A DNA stretch of 40,059 bases from a virus (taxonomy: Duplodnaviria; Caudoviricetes). The translations under genes were made by a program, and so were the position numbers. This document shows positions 3,644-38,524 of this stretch, in pieces. Position 1 is the first letter of the stretch; the number at the start of each line of letters is the position of its first letter. Below the pieces are notes generated by a model. The model saw nothing but the letters and a program-made list of their open reading frames with translations. It searched no databases and was not told the DNA's origin. The stretch covers positions 1-40,059 of the IMG/VR virus record IMGVR_UViG_3300048576_000513, one strand, 5' to 3'.

Positions 3644-4126
3644 TCATAAATTTGCCGCCCTTCGGATGCCGTCGTACAGAGCCAATCCGGGCACCCAGGA
3701 ACCGTCCAGTTGATCCTCGTATTGGGCCACCATCCAGCCCAGGACGCGGTAGATGAGCCGCCATGTGTGGGCAAGCTGAGACCGGCCGCCGCGCCGGGCA
3801 ACCAGTTCCGCATCCTCGGCTAGGCCGTGGGCGGTGACGATCCAGCGGAGCCCATCTTGTGTTTTCGCCCCTTGGCGTTCGACCACGTCCATGACTTGGC
3901 CCAGAGTCTTGGCGTAAGCATCATGGGCTTTCTGGTTCTTGAAATGCCAGCCACCTTTTTCGTTCCGGCCACCTAGGCGCAGCTCGCAAAGGCGGATGAG
4001 GCAGCCGAGCCGGGCCCGGGCCATGGCAAGGGCGGGGATTGCATCCGTGGACGTGTAAACGGCGTTGCAGACATCCACGGCGATCATGTGGGAACGGTAG
4101 GCAAGTGATGGGGTGACGGTGTTCAT
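3644..4126 (-). CDS. Hypothetical protein
   Basis: Starts MNTVTPS with ATGA overlap. Confidence 0.65.
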   Translation of the reverse strand: MNTVTPSLAYRSHMIAVDVCNAVYTSTDAIPALAMARARLGCLIRLCELRLGGRNEKGGWHFKNQKAHDAYAKTLGQVMDVVERQGAKTQDGLRWIVTAHGLAEDAELVARRGGRSQLAHTWRLIYRVLGWMVAQYEDQLDGSWVPGLALYDGIRRAANL

Positions 4127-4689
4127 CCCTCCACCCTCTTCACCTTCACCACCCAAGCCCACGGGTTCGACTCCCAGGGGTAGCGACGGCCGTAGCGGGA
4201 GGACCAGAACGCCTCAAACTCCGCACGAATCTGCTTGTAGAGCTCATGGCTGGCCGGAGTGTCCATGGACACGCCAAGGGCCATCCGCATGTCGTTCTCG
4301 CAGAGTTGATGCAGGCGGCAGCACCGCACGCTTTCAACCTCCAGGGTGATCCTGGACGCTGCTTCCGGCATCCTGGTTGACGGTTCCCAAGGGCCAGATT
4401 CAACACCATCCGCCGCATAAGCGTACTCATTGACGGGGTGGCCCAATGCCTTCCACGTCTCTTTGCACCGCAGCCGCGTTCCAGGGGCGCCGAAGGGGCT
4501 CTTATCGAGGATCGTGAACCGCCCGCACGCTCCAAGAACTGTACGGCCGGCGACGTCCATATGGTCGGCCAGCGGATGACTGCATACGCACATCGTCTTG
4601 TGGGCGACCGGCCTGACGACCAGCCCCAGCCTATCGTCCAGAGCGGCGCGGGCTTCGTGCGGCGAGAGGGTGAAGCTATGTTCTTTCAT
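4123..4689 (-). CDS. Phage ASCH/PUA-like protein
   Basis: KETW, WEPSTRMPEAASRITLEV, WESNPWAWVV resemble the common WxPSIHMPRWASRITLE...WxxNPWVWV family. Confidence 0.7.
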   Translation of the reverse strand: MKEHSFTLSPHEARAALDDRLGLVVRPVAHKTMCVCSHPLADHMDVAGRTVLGACGRFTILDKSPFGAPGTRLRCKETWKALGHPVNEYAYAADGVESGPWEPSTRMPEAASRITLEVESVRCCRLHQLCENDMRMALGVSMDTPASHELYKQIRAEFEAFWSSRYGRRYPWESNPWAWVVKVKRVEG

Positions 4690-4710
4690 CCCCGTTCCTC
4701 CGGGAATGCG

Positions 4711-5175
4711 TCATGGGTTTGGCCGTCGAGCAGCCGGCCGGAAGCGTGCCGCGAGAGCCGGGCGCGGGGAAGATGTGCGGGAGTGGGTGTTGGTGCATGC
4801 GGCCTCCTCGTTGTTTTTGACCACCTCCCGAATCCAGCCAGCCGGAATATGTCCGTCGAACACCATCCAGTTCTCAGGGTCGCCAGCCACATCCAGCACT
4901 TCATGGCTTGGCACATCCAACCTCGACCATGGGACTACTTTATCCATGTGGGACTTCGGAATTTTGATGGTAAGACGAACAGCATTTCTCCGGTAGGGGA
5001 GGTGGCTATGCGTCTGCCAATCCTGAACGAAGCTCCCATTACTTGTCAGCCATTGGCATGGCCCAACAAAGCCATAGAATTTCCCGTCCCGAATTATAGG
5101 AATGACGCCCTTCGTCAGACCTTCTCGTTGGATAGCCGGTAGAAGATGCGTCGCCGTAAAGTGGTAAAACTTCAT
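4711..5175 (-). CDS. Putative ADP-ribosyltransferase-fold protein
   Basis: FYHFT..L..I..EGL start, WLTS strand, WMVFDGHIP..WI end, as in Tpt1/DarT/DUF952-type ART folds. Confidence 0.55.
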   Translation of the reverse strand: MKFYHFTATHLLPAIQREGLTKGVIPIIRDGKFYGFVGPCQWLTSNGSFVQDWQTHSHLPYRRNAVRLTIKIPKSHMDKVVPWSRLDVPSHEVLDVAGDPENWMVFDGHIPAGWIREVVKNNEEAACTNTHSRTSSPRPALAARFRPAARRPNP

Positions 5176-5424: not shown

Positions 5425-7251
5425 TCAGGCAGCCCCTCCCATCGCCTCGCCCACGAACCGGCTTACCGGGCTCTCGTAGACGCGGACCTTGCCGTCCTGG
5501 CCCACCTTCTCCGACCGCTCCGGTCGCACGGCCAGGGTCAGGCAGTCCCGGGCCCGGGTGATGGCCACATAGGCAAGCCGGCGCTCTTCTTCGATGTCGC
5601 CTGCGTCCACGGCGCGCTTGCTCGGCAGGATGTCCTCATTGCAGCCGGCGAGGATCACGTAGGGCCATTCCAGGCCCTTGGCGCCGTGGATGGTGGCCAG
5701 AGTGACGACGCCGGGGCCGGCAGGGTCGGCCGGCGGAATCTCGTCCTGGACGTCGTAGGTGGAGAGCCATTCGAGGTAGGCGGCGACGGTGCGATCCTGC
5801 GGGGGGCGGCCGAAGCAGTACGACCCGACGAAATCCAGGATGTCTTCCGAGACAAAATCTCGCCGAGCCACCATATCAACATCATGCGCACGGATAGCCA
5901 CCAAGACATCGGTGTCCGGCGCGACACTGAAGAAGAGCCAGCCTTGATTGAAAGTCTCCTTCCACTCCTGGAAGTGGCTCCGGTCATGCTGAATGGCCAT
6001 GGCCCGGACGGCGGCGTAATCCTGGTCGGAGAGCTCAAGCTTGTCCTTGATGAGCAGAAACGCGAAGTTGTCGAACGGGTTCACCAGCAGCTTCAAGAAC
6101 GCATGGAACCGCCGGAACTCCTCGGTGTTGGTCAAGGCGGCCTTCTGGCCCACGTAGAGGTACGGCACGCCCACGGCGTCGAGCTCTTCGGCCACCCTCT
6201 GGAGCAGGACGTGCTTGCGGGCGAGGACGGCGGTTTCGCGGGGGAGGAAGTGGTTCAGGTTCGCCAACGTGGCGGCCCTGGCTACGGCCCGGCTGTCCAT
6301 CTCGGGACACGCAGCGACAAGCGCCCCATCTTCCCGGCACGCCTGCATTGTCACCGGCAACCGCATCCGGTTGTGCTCGATCAGCCTGTTTGCCGCTTCG
6401 ACGATCCAGGCCCCAGATCGGTAGTTCCGCTCCAGTCTCAGGACCTGGAAGGTATCCGCGTTCTCCAGGAGGTATTCCGGCGCGGCACCGCGCCATTGGT
6501 AGATGGCCTGGCTGGAATCTCCGACCGCGAATAGGCTGGCCGGCAACCCCTTGGCCATGGTCTCAAGGAGGCCCCACTGGAGTCGATCCAGATCCTGAAC
6601 CTCATCCACCAGCACATGCCGCCAGCCCAGGTACTGCATGACCCGGGGCAGAAGCAGCATAAAGCCGGTCAAGAGGCCGCCGTAGGTCAGGGCGTTGTTT
6701 TCCCGGCAGCGGGCCATGAAGGCGCGGAAGAGGTTGAAAAGCCCTTTGTCGAGCTCGGAAGGCTCAATCCCGGTCGAGTAGTACATGGAGAAGGTAGCAT
6801 CCACGGCCTTCTTGGAGAGCTTCCAGGTTTTCCCCTTGAGCGCCCCCATCTCCGTGGCCACTTGCCGGAGCAGGAACGACTCCTCCCACTCCGAATAGAC
6901 CGTGATGTTGTCCGGCCGCAGGCCAAGCAGTTCCCCGAACCGGCGAAGCTGCACCAGGGCCAGGGCGTGCATGGTGCCCATGGTCACGCCGAAGGCCTTG
7001 TTTCCGATCCGCTTCACCAGCCGTTCCCGCATCTCGCCGGCGGCCTTGCGGGTGAACGTCACGGCCACGATCTCGGACGGCGAGGCGTGGCACTCCTCAA
7101 TCAAGTAGGCGATGCGCTCGGTGAGCACGCGGGTCTTGCCGCTGCCGGCCCCGGCCAGAACCAGGGCCCGGGGCGCGTCGGTGGTCACGGCGGCAAGCTG
7201 GTCCGGATCGAGCGCGGCGCGCGCGCCGCAGGAGGGGTTAGGCGTTTCCAT
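5425..7251 (-). CDS. UvrD/PcrA-like SF1 DNA helicase
   Basis: AGAGSGKT, TFTRKAA, VDEVQD, VGDSSQAIYQWRGA, NYRS, TIHGAKGLEW, EERRLAYVAITRA. Confidence 0.96.
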   Translation of the reverse strand: METPNPSCGARAALDPDQLAAVTTDAPRALVLAGAGSGKTRVLTERIAYLIEECHASPSEIVAVTFTRKAAGEMRERLVKRIGNKAFGVTMGTMHALALVQLRRFGELLGLRPDNITVYSEWEESFLLRQVATEMGALKGKTWKLSKKAVDATFSMYYSTGIEPSELDKGLFNLFRAFMARCRENNALTYGGLLTGFMLLLPRVMQYLGWRHVLVDEVQDLDRLQWGLLETMAKGLPASLFAVGDSSQAIYQWRGAAPEYLLENADTFQVLRLERNYRSGAWIVEAANRLIEHNRMRLPVTMQACREDGALVAACPEMDSRAVARAATLANLNHFLPRETAVLARKHVLLQRVAEELDAVGVPYLYVGQKAALTNTEEFRRFHAFLKLLVNPFDNFAFLLIKDKLELSDQDYAAVRAMAIQHDRSHFQEWKETFNQGWLFFSVAPDTDVLVAIRAHDVDMVARRDFVSEDILDFVGSYCFGRPPQDRTVAAYLEWLSTYDVQDEIPPADPAGPGVVTLATIHGAKGLEWPYVILAGCNEDILPSKRAVDAGDIEEERRLAYVAITRARDCLTLAVRPERSEKVGQDGKVRVYESPVSRFVGEAMGGAA

Positions 7252-19099: not shown

Positions 19100-19468
19100 A
19101 TGAGTATGAAGACACCTCCGATCCCCGAGTGGAAACAGTTGGAAATGGCCCTGGGCGACCCTGACGCGCCCCAGGAACCTTACCAAAAGGCCTTGACCAT
19201 CACCTCGCCCATCATTCCGGTCTACGCCAAATGGCTGACCTGCATAACCCGCATGTACGATGATTTGGTGTGTGCCAACCAATGGGTTGTCTGGTGGACC
19301 AACACGACACCGCCCCTTTACGAAGAATTTTCGCGGGAGGAGTTCAACAAGCGCTTCGTCCTGGAGTCGCAGGCCCCGGCGCACATGCGTGAACGATTCG
19401 CGGCGATGCCGAGCTACCTGGATTGGGTGGATATGCACAATGCGGATGAGGACGGGGTGCGGCAATGA
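19100..19468 (+). CDS. Hypothetical protein
   Basis: MSMKTPP..., RBS, ATGA overlap with the methyltransferase. Confidence 0.65.
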   Translation: MSMKTPPIPEWKQLEMALGDPDAPQEPYQKALTITSPIIPVYAKWLTCITRMYDDLVCANQWVVWWTNTTPPLYEEFSREEFNKRFVLESQAPAHMRERFAAMPSYLDWVDMHNADEDGVRQ

Positions 19469-22464
19469 TGCTCGACATGCTCGGCGGAAGGTCCGGCGGT
19501 CATGGCCTGGAGCTTGTGGTGGACAGCTTTGCCGGCGGCGGGGGCGCCTCGACCGGCATCCGTCTGGCCCTGGGGCGCGATCCCGACGCGGCTCTCAACC
19601 ACGACCCCGTGGCCCTGGCCATCCACAAGGCCAACCACCCCGGGAGCATCCACTACTGCCAGGACATCTTTTCGGTGGAACCGAACCACGTGACCATGGG
19701 TCGGCCGGTCGGGCTCCTGTGGGCCTCGCCGGACTGCTTCCCGGCCGGGACCATGATCCTGACCCAAAAGGGTTTCGCCCCTATCGAGAGCCTATGCGTC
19801 GACGACCTCGTTCTGACCCACAAAGGCCATTGGCGCCGGGTGACCTGCACAATGAAGACCGTGAAGGACACGCTCATCGTGCGCGGCCAAGGCCATTATG
19901 GGTTAGAAGTTTCAGCCGAGCATCCCTTCCTATCTAGGGCCGCGAAAAACGCCTGGCGGAACAACACGACTGTCAAGGAGTGGTCCACCCCCTCTTGGGT
20001 GAAGGCGGACGAACTTAAAAAAGGCTCCTACTGGGCAACCCCCGTTTCTGCTGACCCTCTTGCGACTCCACCTGTCGAAGGCCGTTCCCTTCCTTTCAGT
20101 GAGGGCTTTTGGTGGCTCGTCGGCAGGTATTTGGCTGACGGATGGTCACGCATCCGCGAGGGCACAGGATCGGAACTGGTGATTTGTTGCGGCAAGGCCA
20201 AGGCCGACGTCACCCGAGAACGTTTGAACTTTTGCCCGCCGGCTGGCGGCAGAGCTTGCGATAACGAACTGCGATGGGGCGAACGCGAGACGAGGACCGA
20301 AATCCAATTCACGGCCAGCCACAAGGGCATGGTCCAGTGGCTCCGGGATCACTTCGGCCACCTCGCGCAAAACAAGCGGCTACCTGGGTGGGCTCTTGGC
20401 CTTGACGAAAATTCCAGGCGGGCAATTCTGGACGGTTATTTCGCCGGCGACGGATGGGAGAGCGGCAACATCGTCGAAGTCGGCAGCGTTTCTAAAGCCT
20501 TGATTCTCGGCATGCGTCTCTTGGCCGAATCCCTGGGGCGCAGGGCGACCTTGTATTTCCAGGCAGGCAGGCCAACCACCATAGAAGGCCGGGCGGTCAC
20601 CAATGTGCGCGACGCCTATAAGGTCCGCTGGAGAAAGCAACTCCTTCGCCAGCAAACGACTGCGGACGACAAGCATTCCTGGTCGGCAATCCGGGACGTG
20701 GCCCCAGGCCGCCAAGGCGTGGATGTCTACAACCTCTCTGTGGAAGAAGACGAATCCTACATCGCTGAAGGTGTCGTCGTGCACAATTGTACCCATTTTT
20801 CTAAGGCCAAGGGCGGCGCGCCGAAACGCAATGCCAAGATCCGCGACCTCGCTTGGGCCGTGGTCAAATGGGCTCGCGAGGCCCGTCCCCGGGTCATCAT
20901 TTTGGAGAACGTCGAGGAGTTCGTCACCTGGGGACCGCTTTCCGAACGCGGCGAGATCGTCAAGGGGCGCGAGGGCGAGACGTTCCGGCAGTGGCTGCGC
21001 CAGCTCCGGCGACTCGGCTACCGGGTGCGGCACCGCGAGCTTCGGGCCTGCGACTACGGCGCGCCCACCATCCGCAAGCGGTTTTTCCTCATCGCCCGAC
21101 GCGACGGCCGCCCCATCGTCTGGCCCAAGCCGACGCACGGCCCGGGCCGGCCGCAGCCGTACCGCACGGCGGCCGACATCATCGATTGGTCCATCCCGTG
21201 CCCGTCGATTTTCGAGCGGGCCCGGCCGCTGGCGGAAAACACCCTGCGCCGCATCGCCGAGGGCATCCGCCGGTACGTGATCGAGGCGGCCGAACCGTTC
21301 ATCGTCACCTATTACGGCCCCAAGCGTCCCGGAGATTTCCGGGGCAACGGCCTGTCGGAACAGCTCGGGACGCAGACGACGGAAAACCGGCACGCGTTGG
21401 TGACGCCCTATGTCGTCAACCTGACCCATGGCGGCCGATTGGAACCGGGCAACGAACCGCTGCGCACCATCACCACGGCGCATCGGGGAGAAAAGGCCAT
21501 CGCCGTTCCCGTGCTGGTGACCAACACGACCGGCCACGCTCCGGCGAATACTCGTGGCCCCGTTTCGACCCTCACCACCGGCGGACAGCAAATGCTTGCC
21601 TGCGCCGGCCTGGTCGGCGTCGGCGGTCGGGCCGGCCAGTCCCGCCCCAGAGGCGCGGGCGAATCCACGGCCACCACCACGGCCAAGGCCGACACGGCCG
21701 TCGTGGCCGCCACTATGATCCAGACCGGGTACGGCGAGCGTCCCGGCCAGACGCCCCGGGCCCTGGACCTGCAAAAGCCGCTGGGCACCATCGTTGCAGG
21801 CGGCGGCAAGCACGCCGTGGCGGCCGCCTGCCTGCTCAAGCATTACGGCGGCGTGGTCGGTCAGCCGGCGGACGCGCCCATGGGCACCGTGACCACGGTG
21901 GACCACCATTCCGTGTTGGCCGCCTCGATTATGCGCCAGTTCGGCAACTCGGTCGGCGCCCCGGCGGACGATCCCCTCGGCACGGTCACGGCCGGAGGCG
22001 GCGGCAAGTCCGGACTCGTCACCTCGAACCTCGTCAAGCTGCGCGGCACCTGCCGGGACGGCCAGCCCGTCACCGAACCCATGCCGACCGTCACGGCAGG
22101 GGGCACCCATATCGGCGAGGTGCGGGCGTTCCTGGTCAAATACTTCGGCACGGCCATTGGCCAGGACCTGCGCGATCCGCTTCATACCGTGACCACCAAG
22201 GATCGCTTGGGCCTCGTGACCGTTCAGGGCGAAGAATACGTCATCGCGGACATCGGCCTGCGCATGCTTACACCCCGGGAACTGTTCCTGGCCCAGGGCT
22301 TCCCCGCCGACTACGTGATCGATCCGGTGTTCAACGGCAAGCCGCTGCCGAAGTCGAAACAGGTCCGCGCCTGCGGCAACAGCGTGTGCCCGCCCCTGGC
22401 CGAGGCGCTGGTCCGGGCGAACTGCGCGGATATGGCCGTGGAGACCATGGAGGTGGGGGCGTGA
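19465..22464 (+). CDS. DNA cytosine-C5 methyltransferase containing an intein
   Basis: FAGGGG, SPD|C, ENV, YGAPTIRKRF, RMLTPREL..AQGFP, GNSV. Confidence 0.96.
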   Translation: MMLDMLGGRSGGHGLELVVDSFAGGGGASTGIRLALGRDPDAALNHDPVALAIHKANHPGSIHYCQDIFSVEPNHVTMGRPVGLLWASPDCFPAGTMILTQKGFAPIESLCVDDLVLTHKGHWRRVTCTMKTVKDTLIVRGQGHYGLEVSAEHPFLSRAAKNAWRNNTTVKEWSTPSWVKADELKKGSYWATPVSADPLATPPVEGRSLPFSEGFWWLVGRYLADGWSRIREGTGSELVICCGKAKADVTRERLNFCPPAGGRACDNELRWGERETRTEIQFTASHKGMVQWLRDHFGHLAQNKRLPGWALGLDENSRRAILDGYFAGDGWESGNIVEVGSVSKALILGMRLLAESLGRRATLYFQAGRPTTIEGRAVTNVRDAYKVRWRKQLLRQQTTADDKHSWSAIRDVAPGRQGVDVYNLSVEEDESYIAEGVVVHNCTHFSKAKGGAPKRNAKIRDLAWAVVKWAREARPRVIILENVEEFVTWGPLSERGEIVKGREGETFRQWLRQLRRLGYRVRHRELRACDYGAPTIRKRFFLIARRDGRPIVWPKPTHGPGRPQPYRTAADIIDWSIPCPSIFERARPLAENTLRRIAEGIRRYVIEAAEPFIVTYYGPKRPGDFRGNGLSEQLGTQTTENRHALVTPYVVNLTHGGRLEPGNEPLRTITTAHRGEKAIAVPVLVTNTTGHAPANTRGPVSTLTTGGQQMLACAGLVGVGGRAGQSRPRGAGESTATTTAKADTAVVAATMIQTGYGERPGQTPRALDLQKPLGTIVAGGGKHAVAAACLLKHYGGVVGQPADAPMGTVTTVDHHSVLAASIMRQFGNSVGAPADDPLGTVTAGGGGKSGLVTSNLVKLRGTCRDGQPVTEPMPTVTAGGTHIGEVRAFLVKYFGTAIGQDLRDPLHTVTTKDRLGLVTVQGEEYVIADIGLRMLTPRELFLAQGFPADYVIDPVFNGKPLPKSKQVRACGNSVCPPLAEALVRANCADMAVETMEVGA
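19735..20787 (+). mobile_element. Intein (351 aa) with LAGLIDADG homing endonuclease
   Basis: Begins CFPAGT; block B SAEHPF; LVGRYLADG and ILDGYFAGDG; ends VYNLSVEEDESYIAEGVVVHN|C. Confidence 0.96.
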
Positions 22465-23321
22465 GCGGCCCGGATCGGCAATACAGCCTGTTGCCCCTGG
22501 ATGATGCGATCCGGGAGGCGATCGATTTTTTGCGGAAGCATGAGCCGCCGGAGGGATATTTTGTGGGGTTTTCTGGCGGCAAGGACTCCATCGTCACACT
22601 GGAGTTGTGCCGGATGGCAGGTGTTAGGCACGAGGCCTACTACTCCTGCACCACCATCGACCCGCCAGAGGTCGTGAAATTCATCCGTAAACACTACCCA
22701 GAGGTGAAGTGGCTCTACCCTGCGATGTCGTTCTATACGGCAATAAAGAAAAATTCCCCGCCACTTCGCATGAAAAGATGGTGCTGTGACGTATTAAAGA
22801 AAAATCCTGCTAAAGCGATTCCGCTCAAAGCCCGTATCATGGGCATCCGGGCGGAAGAGTCAGCCATGCGAGCTAGTCGACCGCGAATTTCTCCTTACAA
22901 AAAGTATGGCCTGATCATGGTGAAGCCTATCTTCGCATGGCAGGAATGGCAAATTTGGGAATTCATCGAGCAGTTCAGTCTTCCGTATCCAAGTTTATAC
23001 GATGAAGGGTTTGACAGAATTGGATGCGTGGTCTGTCCTTTCATCTGCCATGCTAATCAATCCAGAGTAAACCGAAATAAAGCGCGTTGGCCTGGGTTGT
23101 ATAAGGCGTTTGAGCACGCTTGCAGGGATTGGTGGGAAAAATGCAAAGCTGAAGGTTTTAGGACTCGATACAAACATGACAGTTTCGAAGATTATATGCA
23201 TTCCTACTATCGAGGGTTTGAGACTGATTTGAAACCCGAGATCAAGACCGGTCAAGCGGTACTGTCAATTTCCCCTGCACCCCGCACAGGACTCGCCGCC
23301 ACGGCCGGGGTAGGAGCGTAG
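22461..23321 (+). CDS. PAPS-reductase family protein (PP-loop, Fe-S motifs)
   Basis: GTG start; FSGGKDS, RWCCDVLKK, GIRAEES..R, PI..W, RIGCVVCP. Confidence 0.9.
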   Translation: MSGPDRQYSLLPLDDAIREAIDFLRKHEPPEGYFVGFSGGKDSIVTLELCRMAGVRHEAYYSCTTIDPPEVVKFIRKHYPEVKWLYPAMSFYTAIKKNSPPLRMKRWCCDVLKKNPAKAIPLKARIMGIRAEESAMRASRPRISPYKKYGLIMVKPIFAWQEWQIWEFIEQFSLPYPSLYDEGFDRIGCVVCPFICHANQSRVNRNKARWPGLYKAFEHACRDWWEKCKAEGFRTRYKHDSFEDYMHSYYRGFETDLKPEIKTGQAVLSISPAPRTGLAATAGVGA

Positions 23322-29985: not shown

Positions 29986-30135
29986 ATGGCGGCAACGACT
30001 CGCAGGGGCGTGGCCAGGGTGACCGGACAGGCGCGGGCCAGGACCGGCGGCGCGCGCGGCGCGAACATCGTCCGGGCCATGGCGGCCCGCAGCGGCGGCA
30101 GCCCCACCATCAAGCGGGGCAAGAAGTTCCGTTAA
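29986..30135 (+). CDS. Small Arg/Gly/Ala-rich basic peptide
   Basis: AGGAGGTGA RBS; MAATTRRGVAR...KRGKKFR, 49 aa. Confidence 0.65.
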   Translation: MAATTRRGVARVTGQARARTGGARGANIVRAMAARSGGSPTIKRGKKFR

Positions 30136-31520
30136 CCAACCAGCGCGTTCAGCTTGGCGTCGGGCCTCGCCTCAGGTCGGTAGAAATACGTGGTCGGGGG
30201 GAGCTCGATGCCAAGCAAGGGCGCAAGATCGTGGCACCAGAGGCGGCCATTTTTATGCAGCGCACCCCACTTGGCCTTCGCAAGAAACTTTTCAGCCAAA
30301 GAGCCGGCCAGCGGCACAGGCTTAGGGAAAGCCTTGAGAAGCGCCTCATAGTCCGCGAGGCATTCGGTTTCCGGGTTGCCGGTCGCTTCCAGACCATCCA
30401 AGGGGTTCGCCACTTTCTCCGGCCGCTTGCCCAGCCGGGAATAGCTCACACCGGGCACGTCCAGCCCCATCTTTTGCGCCACGAAGCCGCCGTCCAGGAA
30501 CATATCCCCATGCGCGGTCAGCTTGAGCGCCGCCAGGAAATGATCCTTCTGCCCTCGATCCTCGAACACGATTTCAAACCGGGATTTGTCGGAGAAGTAG
30601 ACCGACACCCAAAATCCGGCGTCGGTCATCGAGGCGTCTTTGTTGGCCATCTGCTTGGCCTGGGCATTGAGCTTGGAGTACCGGCTTTCCTCGGGGGCCA
30701 TTGGCTTCGGAATGGTCATCTTCTGGGACGGCCTGGTGAACGAAAAACGCTTCGGAGCCTCGGGTTTCGGGGCATCCATCGCGGCCAGCGCATCGGCCTT
30801 GGGCAGCGCATCCATGGAGCCATATTTTTCAAGTGCCCGCTCCAACCGGAACACCTCCAGATCCATCATCGGAAAAAATTCCAGGCATCGGGCATAGTCC
30901 CGGGGGAAATGTTTCTTGAGATTCCAGGCGTACAGCAGGTACAGGCCGTCGAAGGTGCGCCCAAAGGCCTGATACTCCGGGGAAAGGCGCACGCCATTGT
31001 CTTTCAGGGCCTTGACGATATCGTCCTTGCGCCAGTCCCAAATCGGATAGAACACGCGCCGGCTGTCGTTCCAGGCCCCGTGCTTTTTGATGGCGCTCGC
31101 CCGTTGGATCGAGTCAGCCGCACGCACCCCTATCGCCGTCCACGAATTTTCTGGGAGCCCGGCCGAAAGCTCGGCCAGCCGGGAAACGTCATCCCAATCG
31201 AATTGCGGCAGGTTGGCCGCGTAGAGCACCGGATATCGCTCCGGGGCCTGAAAAACCATCCCCTCGAACATCATGTGCAGCACGGGCGAAGGCAATCGCA
31301 CGATATGCGTGCCGAGCTTGGCCTCGCAGTAGGCAAGGTATTCTTCCACCACCTCAAGCCCTGGCACCATATAGTAATAGTAGGGAATGATTTCAAAGTG
31401 ATCCCGAAGGGTAAAGGCAACCCCCCAAGCGTCTTTCCCGCCGGAGAATGCAACCAAGCACTTTTCCGGGTTCGGGCTATTTTCGCGAACATGCTGAATT
31501 ATTTCTTTTAGCGATTGCAT
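30132..31520 (-). CDS. PAPS-reductase-like PP-loop protein with C-terminal extension
   Basis: VAFSGGKDA, GVRAADSIQR, YPIWDW, FGRTFDG. Confidence 0.82.
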   Translation of the reverse strand: MQSLKEIIQHVRENSPNPEKCLVAFSGGKDAWGVAFTLRDHFEIIPYYYYMVPGLEVVEEYLAYCEAKLGTHIVRLPSPVLHMMFEGMVFQAPERYPVLYAANLPQFDWDDVSRLAELSAGLPENSWTAIGVRAADSIQRASAIKKHGAWNDSRRVFYPIWDWRKDDIVKALKDNGVRLSPEYQAFGRTFDGLYLLYAWNLKKHFPRDYARCLEFFPMMDLEVFRLERALEKYGSMDALPKADALAAMDAPKPEAPKRFSFTRPSQKMTIPKPMAPEESRYSKLNAQAKQMANKDASMTDAGFWVSVYFSDKSRFEIVFEDRGQKDHFLAALKLTAHGDMFLDGGFVAQKMGLDVPGVSYSRLGKRPEKVANPLDGLEATGNPETECLADYEALLKAFPKPVPLAGSLAEKFLAKAKWGALHKNGRLWCHDLAPLLGIELPPTTYFYRPEARPDAKLNALVG

Positions 31521-35083: not shown

Positions 35084-36208
35084 ATGGGCGAAACCAACGG
35101 GCAAGCGCTGTACGACACCTACCAATGGGCACGCAGCATCGTCTGGAGGGCGCAGCTCGACCAGTTCGAAGCCGAAGCCCTCCTTTCCATCCTGGCCACC
35201 CTCGACAAGGGCCGCCGCGAGGTCATGCGCGAGTTCCAGGCCCGCTACGCCGGCGCGAACCTTTCCGACTGGCAGGAGGCCCGGCTTGAAGCCCTGCTTT
35301 ACGAGGTGGAGGATTTAACCGCGGGCGTTCGGTCGGAGCTCACGCAGCAGTACACCACCATGTCCGTGACCGTGGCCGCGCCGACGCTCACCGAAACCGT
35401 GGGCGCCCTGTCCGTGGCCGGCCTGGCCAAGGGCGTGAACAATGTGGCGCTCTCCCCGACGCAGCTTCGGACCTTCTTCCAGGAAACACCCCTGGGTGGC
35501 CGGCTGATCCAGGAGTGGGTGGACCGCACCTTCGACTTCAACATCCAGGGCCAGATTCGGCAGGCCATCAACGTGGGCGTGCTGCGGGGAGAAGGCTATC
35601 CGGGGCTGGTGCGGCGGATGGAAGACGGGTTCGGGATGGCCCGGCAGGACGCCATTTCTTTGACGAGAACTTTTGTAAGTAGCGCAAACAATCAGGCAAG
35701 AGATATGGTGTATCGCGAAAATCGCGATATAGTAAAGAAGTGGCGTTGGCTTACGGCGTCGGATAATAGAGTTTGTCCGATTTGTCTTGCATTGCATGGT
35801 AGAGAGTTTAAGATAGGGGAAGGCCCGGAAACCCCCAAGCACATACGCTGCCGATGTGTACGCTTGCCCGTTACAGTCACTTGGCGTGAACTTGGTATTG
35901 ATATAGACGAAATGCAACACGAGCTTGACCGCTGGGTGGTTCGTGGGCGGGAGGGCGAGAACGGCGAGATTCTGGTTCGGGGCGTGCATGAGGGCGGGAA
36001 AGACCCTGTTCTTCGTGTTGGGCGTTACAAGAACGCCGACGCATTTTGGGACAGCATGTCCGACGCGGAGAAGGCCAGCACGAGCATGGGACCGGGCCGG
36101 ACGGCATTGCTGAACTCGGGAGACATCAAGATGGCGGATTTGATTCGGGAGGACTTTCAGCCCAGGACGCTCAACGAGTTGAAGGCGTTGGCGGCGTCCA
36201 GGGGTTAA
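35084..36208 (+). CDS. Head morphogenesis protein (SPP1 gp7/Mu F family)
   Basis: RT..SSANN, W...DNRVCPIC..LHG, PKHIRCRC; follows portal. Confidence 0.93.
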   Translation: MGETNGQALYDTYQWARSIVWRAQLDQFEAEALLSILATLDKGRREVMREFQARYAGANLSDWQEARLEALLYEVEDLTAGVRSELTQQYTTMSVTVAAPTLTETVGALSVAGLAKGVNNVALSPTQLRTFFQETPLGGRLIQEWVDRTFDFNIQGQIRQAINVGVLRGEGYPGLVRRMEDGFGMARQDAISLTRTFVSSANNQARDMVYRENRDIVKKWRWLTASDNRVCPICLALHGREFKIGEGPETPKHIRCRCVRLPVTVTWRELGIDIDEMQHELDRWVVRGREGENGEILVRGVHEGGKDPVLRVGRYKNADAFWDSMSDAEKASTSMGPGRTALLNSGDIKMADLIREDFQPRTLNELKALAASRG

Positions 36209-36210
36209 GC

Positions 36211-36453
36211 TCAGCCGGCATCATCGAACAAATCTTTCGGCCGAAGCCCAAGCGCCCCGGCAATCTTCTGAAGATTCTTGAGCGTCAGGGTGTCAATCCC
36301 GGCTGCGCCATCCCTCCTGGCTTTCCGGATCGTGACGAGAGAAAGCCCCGAGGCCTTTGCCAGGCCTTCCATGGTGAAGCCCTTCAGGCGGGCCAATTCG
36401 TCGATCCGGCTTTTCACCCGCATTCCCTGAAACATTTCTTTCCCCTTGGTCAA
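36211..36453 (-). CDS. XRE-family HTH regulator divergent from the Cas7-like cassette
   Basis: TMEGLAKASGLSLVTIRK...LQKIAGALGLRPKDLF; start uncertain. Confidence 0.85.
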   Translation of the reverse strand: MTKGKEMFQGMRVKSRIDELARLKGFTMEGLAKASGLSLVTIRKARRDGAAGIDTLTLKNLQKIAGALGLRPKDLFDDAG

Positions 36454-36525
36454 TGCCGGAAGTCCCCAATCTGTGGCCAGTCAAGGTTATTTACTTTCAT
36501 GCAGATGCCATAAAAATACCGCACC

Positions 36526-36561
36526 GTCACGCTTGACGTGACTACTGCCTGATAGTATTCT
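36526..36561 (+). promoter_or_regulatory. Cassette promoter with operator over the -35
   Basis: TTGACG (36533-38)-17 nt-TATTCT (36556-61); GTCACG-N5-CGTGAC at 36526-42. Confidence 0.75.
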
Positions 36562-36594
36562 TTCATAACACTTGGCGAGCAATGGGCCTGTCAT

Positions 36595-36846
36595 GGTGTG
36601 GCTCGCTGGGGCGCGGCTCAGATTGGTTTGGCGCGTTGCGGTGAAGCACGGCAAGGCGTTGTCTGGTGTGCCAGGGCGTGGGACGGCAAGGCTTGGAAAC
36701 AAATTTCTCGTGGCTTGGCGTGGGTGCCGATGTGGGGCGAGGTAAGGCGAGGCGCGCCGATGCTCGGTTTGGGTAAATTTTTTCATGGCGAGGCACGCCC
36801 GGGCGGTGTGAGCCGGGGTGGTGCTAGGCGTGTCAAGGCAAGGAAC
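36595..36846 (+). ncRNA. Upstream array of three GGY-NN pentamer tracts (putative guide RNAs)
   Basis: 5-nt register at 36595-36699 (13 of 21 units start GGY), 36712-36775, 36787-36846; A/T linkers AAATTTCTCGT and AAATTTTTTCAT. Confidence 0.8.
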
Positions 36847-36866
36847 TTTTAACGCGAGGATGAAAA

Positions 36867-37487
36867 ATGGAACGCATCGCTTTTCAGATCGAAGGCATTG
36901 CTCCGATTCTCATGCACGACAATACGCGGCTGGCGAATCCGCTTGATCCGCTGTGCAAGGAGCTGAAATCGGTCACCAGCAAGAAGAAAAAAACCGATTC
37001 CGACTTGGCCGCCATTGCCAAAATCGAGTTTCGCGGCGGTATCTATTTCGATGAGACGGACGGACCCTACATCCCGTCCCGCTGCATCCAGGCTATGCTC
37101 CGGGATGCCGGAACCATCAACAAGCAGGGCCGGGCCGTGAATCGCGGTGTCGTGGTCGTCGAGGACAAGTGTCCGCTCCAGTACGAAGGGCCGCGCACCA
37201 TTGACGCGCTTTTCGAGTCGGGCGAATTTACCGACATGCGCCCGGTGAAGGTCCAGACGTCCACCACCGTGCGCTGCCGGCCCATCTTTCGGGCCTGGGG
37301 CATCAAGTTCACCCTGGCCTTTCAGCCCGACGTCATCAACCGTGAAGAGGTCATCGACATCGTGGAGCGCGCCGGCATGATGACCGGATTGGGCGACTAC
37401 CGGCCCGGTTCTCCCAAGGGGGGCCAGTTCGGTCGCTTCGAGGTGGTGGCCATCGACGGCAAAAAGGTGGCCAAGGAGGCGGCGTAA
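36867..37487 (+). CDS. Stand-alone Cas7/RAMP-superfamily-like protein
   Basis: IEGIAPILMH first strand, PYIP..IQAMLRDA helix, RPIF..W..KFTL, G-rich loop GLGDYRP...GQFGRFEV. Confidence 0.75.
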   Translation: MERIAFQIEGIAPILMHDNTRLANPLDPLCKELKSVTSKKKKTDSDLAAIAKIEFRGGIYFDETDGPYIPSRCIQAMLRDAGTINKQGRAVNRGVVVVEDKCPLQYEGPRTIDALFESGEFTDMRPVKVQTSTTVRCRPIFRAWGIKFTLAFQPDVINREEVIDIVERAGMMTGLGDYRPGSPKGGQFGRFEVVAIDGKKVAKEAA

Positions 37488-37489
37488 TC

Positions 37490-37984
37490 ATGGGTGCCCT
37501 TCGATCCATCCGCGAAGCCCACAAGCCGCCCGAGGGAACGCAATACGACAAGGGGTGGCAAAATGCCCTGGCGGCTTTCGACTCAGCCGATTTTTATCCC
37601 GGCGACATCATCCCCATGGCGTGGTTCTATGAGCACTTCCGGGTCAAGGAGCCTTCGTCTCGCGGGACGATAGCCGAGTTCCAGGAAGAGCAGTTCCGTT
37701 TCCTTGGGGAGATGGACCGCTTCCAGAAGGCCCTGGCCGAGGATTACGACCTCGCTTTGCAAAACGTCCGGGGCGAGGGCTACCGGATCGTTCCGCCGGC
37801 CGAGCAAACGGAATGGGCCATGGACCGAGCGCAGCGGGAATTTGGGAAGGCCCTTTCTCGGGCGCACATGCGCTTGACGCATATTCGGCTGAACGAGCTG
37901 ACCGACGAACAGCGCCGGCAAAACGCCGACGCACAGGCCAAGCTGGCCGCGTTCAGGACGAGGGCCAGGACGGCGTTGGTTTGA
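37490..37984 (+). CDS. Accessory protein of the cassette (winged-helix-like)
   Basis: AGGAGG RBS; wing-like LQNVRGEGYRI; helical C-terminus. Confidence 0.75.
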   Translation: MGALRSIREAHKPPEGTQYDKGWQNALAAFDSADFYPGDIIPMAWFYEHFRVKEPSSRGTIAEFQEEQFRFLGEMDRFQKALAEDYDLALQNVRGEGYRIVPPAEQTEWAMDRAQREFGKALSRAHMRLTHIRLNELTDEQRRQNADAQAKLAAFRTRARTALV

Positions 37985-37992
37985 ATTTTCGT

Positions 37993-38524
37993 GGCAAGGT
38001 CTGGTGGGGTCCGGAAAGGCACGATACGGCTGTGCTGGGTCGAGTTTGGCTTGCCTCAAAGGTCCGGCGGCTTCGGTCGTCGGGCCGAACGAGGTTGGCT
38101 CGGGAGTGGTACGGCTGTGTCTGGTTCTGCACGGCGGGGCGATGTTGGGCGTGGCTTGCCTTCGAGGTGCAGCGGCGAAAGTCGTTGCACTGATCAAGGC
38201 GCGGTCCGGACTGGTTCGGCGGGGACAGGCGCGGCTGGGCAAGGTTCGGCCTTACATGGCCAGGCAGAGCAAGGATTGCCTCCGAGAAGCCGGCGTTTCG
38301 ATCCTGGCTTCGATCGAGGCGGGGAGATGTTGGGTGAAGCCGGTCGATGCACGCCATGGCTCGGTGATGCCGGCCACGGCCAGGCTTGCCTCCGAGGCCC
38401 AGGGAGCAATCCTTGGGCCGATCAAGGCTAGGCACGGTTGGGCGGAGTGTGGCGCTGTTGGGATTGTTGGGCGGTGTTGGGCTTGCCTTGCAGGGGCGTC
38501 AACTCCGATTGGCGTCCCGATCAA
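37993..38524 (+). ncRNA. Downstream array of five GGY-NN tracts, each closed by GGMTTGCCTY, hairpin and GAWCRA
   Basis: Tracts start 37993, 38093, 38198, 38318, 38426; hairpins 38061-86 (UUCG), 38167-90 (GAAA), 38286-311, 38396-419 (GCAA), 38493-518. Confidence 0.88.

Follow-up and report, generated by a model that had tools for sequence, protein, structure and literature searches.

The window, i.e. the whole stretch of 40,059 nucleotides analysed here (IMG/VR record IMGVR_UViG_3300048576_000513; Duplodnaviria, Caudoviricetes), is a temperate phage record in which an integrase, a terminase and a portal and gp7 region were recognised. One of the closest relatives of its gp7 comes from a prophage, the record of which bears the title Solidesulfovibrio alcoholivorans. 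As in the SPP1 gp7/MuF proteins described in the literature (PMC5576092), a Phage_Mu_F domain is encoded downstream of the portal gene and the 3' region is variable; the window differs in that no toxin domain was matched in gp7 with Pfam or PHROGs and in that it is the conserved core that holds the relevant variation. The slot behind gp7 is empty or about 200 bp long at three related loci (L001, L003 and L102) and holds differing inserts at four others (L002, L101, L104 and L105). In the window it holds a cassette composed of an HTH gene, three GGYNN tracts (U1 to U3), the genes vipr and vap and a further array of tracts (Table 1).

Table 1. Features of the gp7 gene and the adjoining cassette (positions in the window)
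Feature	Position	Strand	Evidence and remarks
gp7/MuF head morphogenesis gene, 374 aa	35084..36208	+	Pfam PF04233 (Phage_Mu_F) E 1.7e-15; PHROG head morphogenesis
AT-rich segment of gp7, synonymously saturated, best-fit extent	35654..36025	+	65/124 A/T-ending codons; right edge poorly defined, 35903-36056
Predicted footprint of guide U1 in gp7, units 4-20, antisense, skipped base = wobble	35654..35704	-	resident match 24/34
HTH gene of Cro/C1 type, oriented away from the VIPR unit	36211..36453	-	Pfam HTH_26 E 1.7e-7
Sigma-70-like promoter match upstream of U1	36533..36561	+	consensus match only; 1 found vs 0.1 expected
GGYNN tract U1, 22 units	36585..36694	+	units 4-20 decode to the gp7 motif
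GGYNN tracts U2 and U3, upstream of vipr	36711..36841	+	
vipr gene, 206 aa, RAMP-like	36867..37487	+	phmmer to SUSP1 Vipr 36pp_D E 1.9e-31; profile E 3e-59
vap accessory gene, 164 aa, next after vipr	37490..37984	+	vap homologs behind vipr in G216 (72%) and G329 (26%)
Downstream array, five GGYNN tracts	37993..38480	+	hairpins behind D1 and D2

The cassette is identified from its sequence as a VIPR because its 206-aa protein matches the Vipr of SUSP1 (E 1.9e-31), the match covering residues 4-193; a RAMP-like Vipr, an adjoining vap and GGY/NN pentamer tracts flanking the genes (three upstream, five downstream) are all present. The 'wobble-skipping guide' of an earlier, sequence-only reading of this DNA would thereby be a VIPR vrRNA. 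In layout the locus resembles the type II-like VIPR of SUSP1 and of a Pseudomonas fulva prophage, which likewise comprise vipr, a small accessory gene and GGYNN tracts on both sides (10.64898/2026.04.26.720920; 10.64898/2026.04.26.720927), a likeness to type II and not a phylogenetic assignment. The Cro/C1-type HTH protein is likely the regulator of the VIPR unit. No Pfam family above the cut-off was obtained for vap, and the single-sequence structure model of Vap was of low confidence (pLDDT 46.9). A nuclease family was absent from vipr, vap and the HTH gene in Pfam and PHROGs, a remote fold being possible. Regarding the tails of the tracts, the hairpins behind D1 and D2 had z-scores of -2.2 and -2.0, whereas no structured tail is apparent at the 3' end of U1 (z 0.4). 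The first units of U2 (36711-36735) lie one base off the register of its remaining units, which may reflect an indel or a staggered array.

U1 encodes a gp7 motif of related phages. Its units 4-20 spell V-T-L-T-R-T-F-V-S-A-A-N-N-E-A-x-D, the consensus of the gp7 family, at a motif where the resident gp7, i.e. that of the window, reads I-S-L-T-R-T-F-V-S-S-A-N-N-Q-A-R-D. Read as NN plus one skipped base, U1 is antisense to gp7 and in codon register, with the skip on the wobble. Its best site was gp7 in 8/8 related phage records, with 27-30 of 34 positions matched and all 100 shuffles lower (maximum 22-25); only the 1-nt skip rises above the shuffles, skips of 0, 2 and 3 scoring 19-23. Because units 4-20 had been picked after the match was seen, the test was repeated with the untrimmed guide, which matched the relatives at 30-33 of 44 positions (shuffle maximum 27-29) and the resident at 27/44, within its shuffles (maximum 29). 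The codon at 35654 is the partner of the final variable unit of U1. Units 21-22 resemble the common scaffold end: GGCAA occurs more often than any other unit in the last position (69/216) and likewise in the second-last (47/216). U1 has 17-20 variable units, which exceeds the published 9-16. U2, U3 and the five downstream tracts yielded no target above shuffles in the window, the eight related records and the G216 stretch. A match of U2 to the 3' end of gp7 (19/26) was rejected, since without the units that are off register it fell to shuffle level (14-15/20).

The resident gp7 matches U1 at 24/34 positions (71%), the lowest value in a comparison with 11 loci of more than 50% identity (26-30), two of which, L103 and L104, share one footprint allele; L007 and L087 (duplicates of L001) and L006 (a truncated near-copy of L004) were excluded from the counts. 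Scores of 24 or less were likewise found in 8/9 distant gp7 loci (31-41% identity). In the published VIPR work a natural target is called at a cut-off of 80%, a level that none of the self-hits in its sets reached. This cut-off is reached by 9/11 of the loci above 50% identity; the resident lies below it, and no self site at 80% or more was found. Regarding the three tail-proximal units of U1, 3/6 positions are matched in the resident and 6/6 in four GC-rich close relatives; according to the VIPR structures (10.64898/2026.04.26.720927, section 8), it is at the 3' tail that target engagement begins. An exact search of viral_contigs with guide units 8-20 gave no matches, and units 6-15 had one exact match there, the AT-rich codons of L002.

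The footprint coincides with a change in codon composition of the resident gene. As had been counted in the sequence-only reading, 1/18 codons before 35654 ends in A or T, against 12/18 from 35654 onwards (Fisher p 3e-4), and the AT-rich codons persist through the conserved core (25/190 before 35654 vs 52/88 in 35654-35915, p 9e-15). The patch outlasts the end at 35915 that had been assigned to it, the best fit reaching 36025. That it starts at the predicted target was borne out, the best fit of the left edge being 35651-35654 (2-lnL range 35642-35666). In a scan of 20 window genes no other in-gene A/T3 patch was as strong, the runner-up being the intein region of a methylase. The product of the latter gene (19465-22464) is a C-5 DNA methylase that has an intein (matches to Hint and LAGLIDADG; A/T3-rich at 19888-20803); an overlapping frame of 822 aa (20853-23321) matches PAPS reductase, and a 462-aa gene on the minus strand (30132-31520), divergent from the small terminase region, has a weak PAPS-reductase match.

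gp7 is a mosaic, the 5' half of which is close to L001, L002, L003 and L102, while the 3' half comes from other lineages. In 35100-35653 the resident is 82-89% identical in nucleotides to these four loci and 77-78% to L101; in 35654-35915 the nucleotide identity to relatives falls to 63-67%, with protein identity still at 75-77%. At 4-fold sites of the latter interval, 5/28 to 10/28 are identical to five close relatives, compared with 62-77% upstream (four of them). In segment trees, computed without P0009 and P0012, the N-terminal part of the resident groups with P0002 and L002, the core falls in a different, weakly supported group (81/85), and the C-terminus groups with L101, L002 and P0011. 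The residues I-S at 191-192 occur in 0/11 proteins of 72% identity or more (P0002-P0012) and are absent from L002. The saturation of the silent sites with respect to all relatives found marks the segment from 35654 as a block of other ancestry, likely one that was recombined in; a recombined patch, which the earlier reading had named as the alternative, is the likely origin of the segment.

The proposal that the target was locally recoded was not supported, since silent saturation extends far past the 51-bp target and since first- and second-position changes at conserved sites are not enriched in the footprint (5/30 inside vs 13/114 in the remainder of the patch, p 0.31). Resampling at the rate outside the footprint gave a score of 24 or less in 64-86% of simulations. 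Changes among the relatives amount to 14/204 inside the footprint and 94/852 outside, i.e. the motif is more conserved inside; for the resident the figures are 28/136 and 115/568, a mild excess whose significance could not be shown. A recombined origin and self-avoidance as the reason for keeping the segment are compatible readings.

Two synonymous codon-box switches had been put forward as escapes from the guide. Against the CT and TC of the guide, TTG (35660) and AGT (35678) are indeed mismatches, but AGT is ancestral and not specific to the resident: AGY occurs at 35678 in 9/11 loci above 50% identity, TCN only in L002 and L108. TTG at 35660 is derived with respect to 9/11 loci, TTR being found also in L107 and in L002, a record with no Vipr match. 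The further statement that Leu and Ser switches are the only silent escapes overlooked Arg (CGN/AGR), and the resident AGA at 35699 adds a mismatch; another missed mismatch is added by AGC at 35681 (vs TCG in L001 and L102). At 35666, AGA matches the guide, and 5/11 relatives have the mismatching CGN there. As TTG and AGA are also used across the rest of the AT-rich patch, donor codon style and selection fit the box switches equally well.

If self-avoidance shaped the segment, cassette-free relatives should lack it, and here the outcome is divided. Four close VIPR-free relatives (L001, L003, L101 and L102) have no AT-rich patch (A/T3 0.12-0.38), whereas L002, which is VIPR-free too, has one of its own (A/T3 0.51-0.67); its sequence differs from that of the resident (7/25 4-fold sites identical). 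No Vipr was found in the records of L001, L003, L101 and L102 or in five others, in a search that covered several fragments and was run without a positive control. The left edge of the L002 patch (35651-35690) overlaps the resident edge, so the latter may be no more than the point where the most conserved motif begins. The changes of L002 at conserved first and second positions number 5/30 in the footprint vs 15/114 outside. L002 codons match guide units 6-15 exactly, from which it follows that AT-rich does not mean immune. In the L002 record a free-standing HNH_3 endonuclease gene (4361-5023) lies immediately upstream of gp7; its portal is only 30% identical to that of the window, the independent MuF AT-rich patch lies at 5560-5830, and a ParB-like insert follows gp7. 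The HNH gene and the patch of L002 may represent a parallel conflict. Regarding wider searches, an exact search with a degenerate resident-type motif gave no matches, a single-protein Vipr search of viral_contigs found none, short gp7 fragments gave one distant match only, a metagenome scan gave four loci, all of 51-55% identity, and the 416 matches among INPHARED phages were all below 60% identity.

A second bearer of the cassette was found in wastewater, on contigs from three runs of one study. One contig of 1749 bp extends across the footprint as far as vipr and shows 17 differences over 35867-37321; in another run there were two differences over 35867-36863, a stretch that contains U1. The gp7 of this bearer (the twin, an assembled contig) has 63 differences in 510 bp upstream, an ordinary level among relatives, and is less than 80% alike to the resident over the 153 bp of 35714-35866. 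It nevertheless keeps A35654, T35657, T35660 and both AG Ser codons, and five of the first ten wobbles differ. The five listed differences in the footprint are all at wobbles, with the bases of I-S-L(TTG) and AGY-AGY kept; 6/20 twin differences are unlisted, probably near the alignment ends, and 35684-35704 was only partly read. Just upstream, 5/18 codons of the twin end in A or T, an edge less sharp than that of the resident. Both cassette-bearing alleles share descent, so that 2/2 against 0/5 reflects one lineage and not independent evidence.

These comparisons indicate a recent transfer of the cassette together with the gp7 tail between two backbones with low-match footprints, with a crossover near 35867, downstream of the target. 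A compatibility rule, under which the cassette would persist only beside a resistant allele, fits the twin better than co-conversion. A V-T type gp7 allele is present at low depth in one wastewater run, i.e. the predicted target occurs in the same sample. The same runs hold a second lineage (36014-37210) in which the HTH gene is about 89% and vipr about 91% alike and the HTH gene is joined to a different gp7 3' end. In G216, a Vipr cassette 92% identical lies in another prophage region and lacks HTH, U1 and U2; the anti-gp7 guide was seen only in cassette copies adjoining gp7.

Among 210 tracts of 62 other VIPR loci, nine reached z of 3 or more for a site near to self, judged on 60 shuffles per tract; several of these sites lie in neighbouring structural genes (capsid in L063, tail J in L084, neck in L085). 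An automatic test for wobble register was not significant (5/7 vs 69/151, p 0.17); with frames chosen by hand, and after the fact, the wobble register was found in 7/7 assignable sites. The adjacent major capsid gene of L063 has, at 3987-4016, a guide match of 18/20 in wobble register, which exceeds the published 80% cut-off for self; a Leu codon, TTG, is mismatched there, and A/T3 is locally raised (16/29 codons). The site in the neighbouring tail J gene of L084 (8419-8448) scores 16/20, again with a TTG Leu mismatch, and L085 has two near-self sites in one neck gene (1099-1119 and 1189-1236; 13/14 and 22/32).

Another kind of insert occupies the slot behind gp7 in L104 (6203-8070) and also in L103. 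It includes an HTH gene 41% identical to that of the window, 36-nt dual-repeat arrays with two spacers of 9-10 nt, and a 279-aa protein that matches PDB 9mty (E 6e-30) and TasH 21kl (E 3e-8), features that point to a TIGR-Tas-like system where the window has its VIPR cassette. For the L104 spacers no target in keeping with the published rule was found, the best opposite-strand score in nine records being no higher than 16/18. The two spacers of one unit (L104 7960-7995) match relatives on the same strand in B+A order, at L142 3661, L136 11857 and L132 12100 (18/18 and 17/18, self 17/18); this departs from the published opposite-strand rule, and eight arrangements had been tried.

We consider it somewhat probable that U1 silences the gp7 of rival phages and that the resident's own recombined AT-rich segment, being poorly matched, has been kept as a guard against self-silencing. 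On the computed matches, U1 with a 1-nt skip picks gp7, with the wobble skipped, in every related record tested. VIPR binds DNA, represses transcription and needs no PAM (10.64898/2026.04.26.720920), and from this published work a Vipr-vrRNA complex would be expected to bind such sites and to repress transcription with no cutting. The computed saturation at silent sites against all relatives found marks the segment from 35654 as of differing ancestry. The cassette would then persist only next to an allele that it binds badly, and exchange with susceptible kin would shorten the foreign block at its left end as far as the footprint and no further; a halt of trimming there would account for the edge at 35654. 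AT-richness would not be what permits escape, the guide being blind to wobble bases, but would reflect the codon style of the donor. Silencing of a rival gp7 would lower the quality of rival virions, and selection would keep the footprint foreign. In SPP1, gp7 aids infectivity. The self-avoidance proposed in the earlier reading is retained in part: no close relative matches the guide as poorly as the resident, and the twin keeps the mismatches, but recoding aimed at the target was not supported and the Ser mismatch is ancestral. A point against this explanation is that AGA at 35666 leaves one silent escape unused.

A neutral origin is possible, though we hold it to be doubtful. Phage mosaicism would have brought in the MuF core of a phage with lower GC, the crossover having taken place at the most conserved motif. 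The guide would target this motif for its conservation, and the low self-match and the shared edge would be by-products, the resident allele being under no selection. This agrees with the patch of L002, which starts at about the same place in a record with no Vipr, with a footprint that is not enriched and a match that simulations make as low as observed, with gp7 trees that differ by segment and with the varied inserts of the slot (L002, L101, L104, L105). It accounts less well for the mismatching bases that both cassette-bearing alleles keep though the next 153 bp differ (less than 80% alike). Moreover, an allele of ancestral type would score 27-29/34, at or above the published cut-off, so that some constraint is expected, and the HNH gene upstream of gp7 could, by analogy, explain the L002 patch by a similar conflict. 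Were the footprint instead recoded in place, with point mutations selected after U1 was gained and including silent Leu, Ser and Arg box switches, the switches relative to relatives with the same residue at 35660 (TTG), 35681 (AGC) and 35699 (AGA), all of which add mismatches, would be explained, as would the TTG that L063 and L084 have in a neighbouring structural gene where their own guide reads CT. This course is nonetheless improbable: wobbles that the guide does not read are saturated, divergence extends 200-370 bp beyond the footprint, TTG and AGA recur in the rest of the patch, Ser 35678 is ancestral and AGA at 35666 matches the guide.

True homing, in which the cassette would cut or nick a rival gp7 and repair would copy flank and cassette in the manner of free-standing T4 endonucleases, is still more improbable. 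The stretch from 35654 to the cassette does differ in ancestry from the 5' half of gp7, the gp7 3' end and the cassette moved recently as a block, and free-standing endonucleases are known for distant cleavage sites and co-conversion (PMC2988022); against this stand the missing nuclease family in vipr, vap and the HTH gene, the description of type II vap genes as DNA-binding (10.64898/2026.04.26.720920) and the start of the recent exchange near 35867, downstream of the target, which was therefore not co-converted on that occasion. The likeness to a homing endonuclease drawn in the earlier reading holds only loosely, given the lack of a detected nuclease and the place of the latest crossover. 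Local mutagenesis, in which repeated binding of Vipr would have exposed the site to AT-biased mutation and so made the patch, appears the least credible of all. A/T endings are raised at the near-self sites of L063 (7/10, gene 0.19) and L084 (6/10, gene 0.22), but not in L029, L052, L073 and L085; the patch is seven times the footprint, that of L063 extends the other way, and L002 has its patch with no Vipr.

The locus shares with published VIPR (10.64898/2026.04.26.720920; 10.64898/2026.04.26.720927) the wobble-skipping code with a 1-nt skip, a target in rival phages and the lack of a self site at 80% or more. The targets described there comprise satellites, regulators of lysis and lysogeny and other VIPR loci, whereas here the target is a homolog of the gene next door, and the resident allele is a foreign block with an edge at the footprint. 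Solo vrRNAs likewise match self less well than non-self, avoiding autoimmunity, but their guides are aimed at the vrRNAs of other phages and not at a protein-coding neighbour gene or a recombined allele (10.64898/2026.10.15.759431); the main text of that preprint, as available, makes no mention of recoding. T4-like free-standing homing endonucleases and marker exclusion share with the window a sequence-specific element beside a conserved gene and a linked resistant allele, and these endonucleases act on alleles of relatives hundreds of bases away (PMC2988022). The window differs in that no nuclease was detected, the action would be repression, and no evidence of break-driven co-conversion was found. 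A VIPR cassette linked to a resistant allele of a neighbouring gene was not found in the available printed text, and the target tables of the preprints may contain such cases.

Taken together, the window cassette belongs to VIPR and, with moderate probability, combines a guide directed at kin with a neighbour allele that is resistant and was gained by recombination. For how VIPR, which needs no PAM and reads only the first two codon bases, can be aimed at close kin without a self-hit, the locus offers a testable answer: a divergent block of the target gene gained by recombination and not by base-by-base mutation. The alleles of gp7 form a natural series of 24 to 30 matches out of 34 with mismatches in different places, which could be used to measure the tolerance and seed of VIPR, properties not found in the available text of the VIPR preprints. 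The locus also suggests a cause for mosaic boundaries within conserved phage head genes. More tentatively, it could act as a nuclease-free allele drive, in which a VIPR beside a virion gene, with a guide against the common allele and a resistant foreign block at home, would silence kin and spread with its allele in mixed infections. If so, the neighbourhood of gp7 would be a recurring arsenal (VIPR in the window, HNH in L002, a TIGR-Tas-like locus in L103 and L104), the weapons of which would drive the swapping of alleles in the most conserved part of a head gene.
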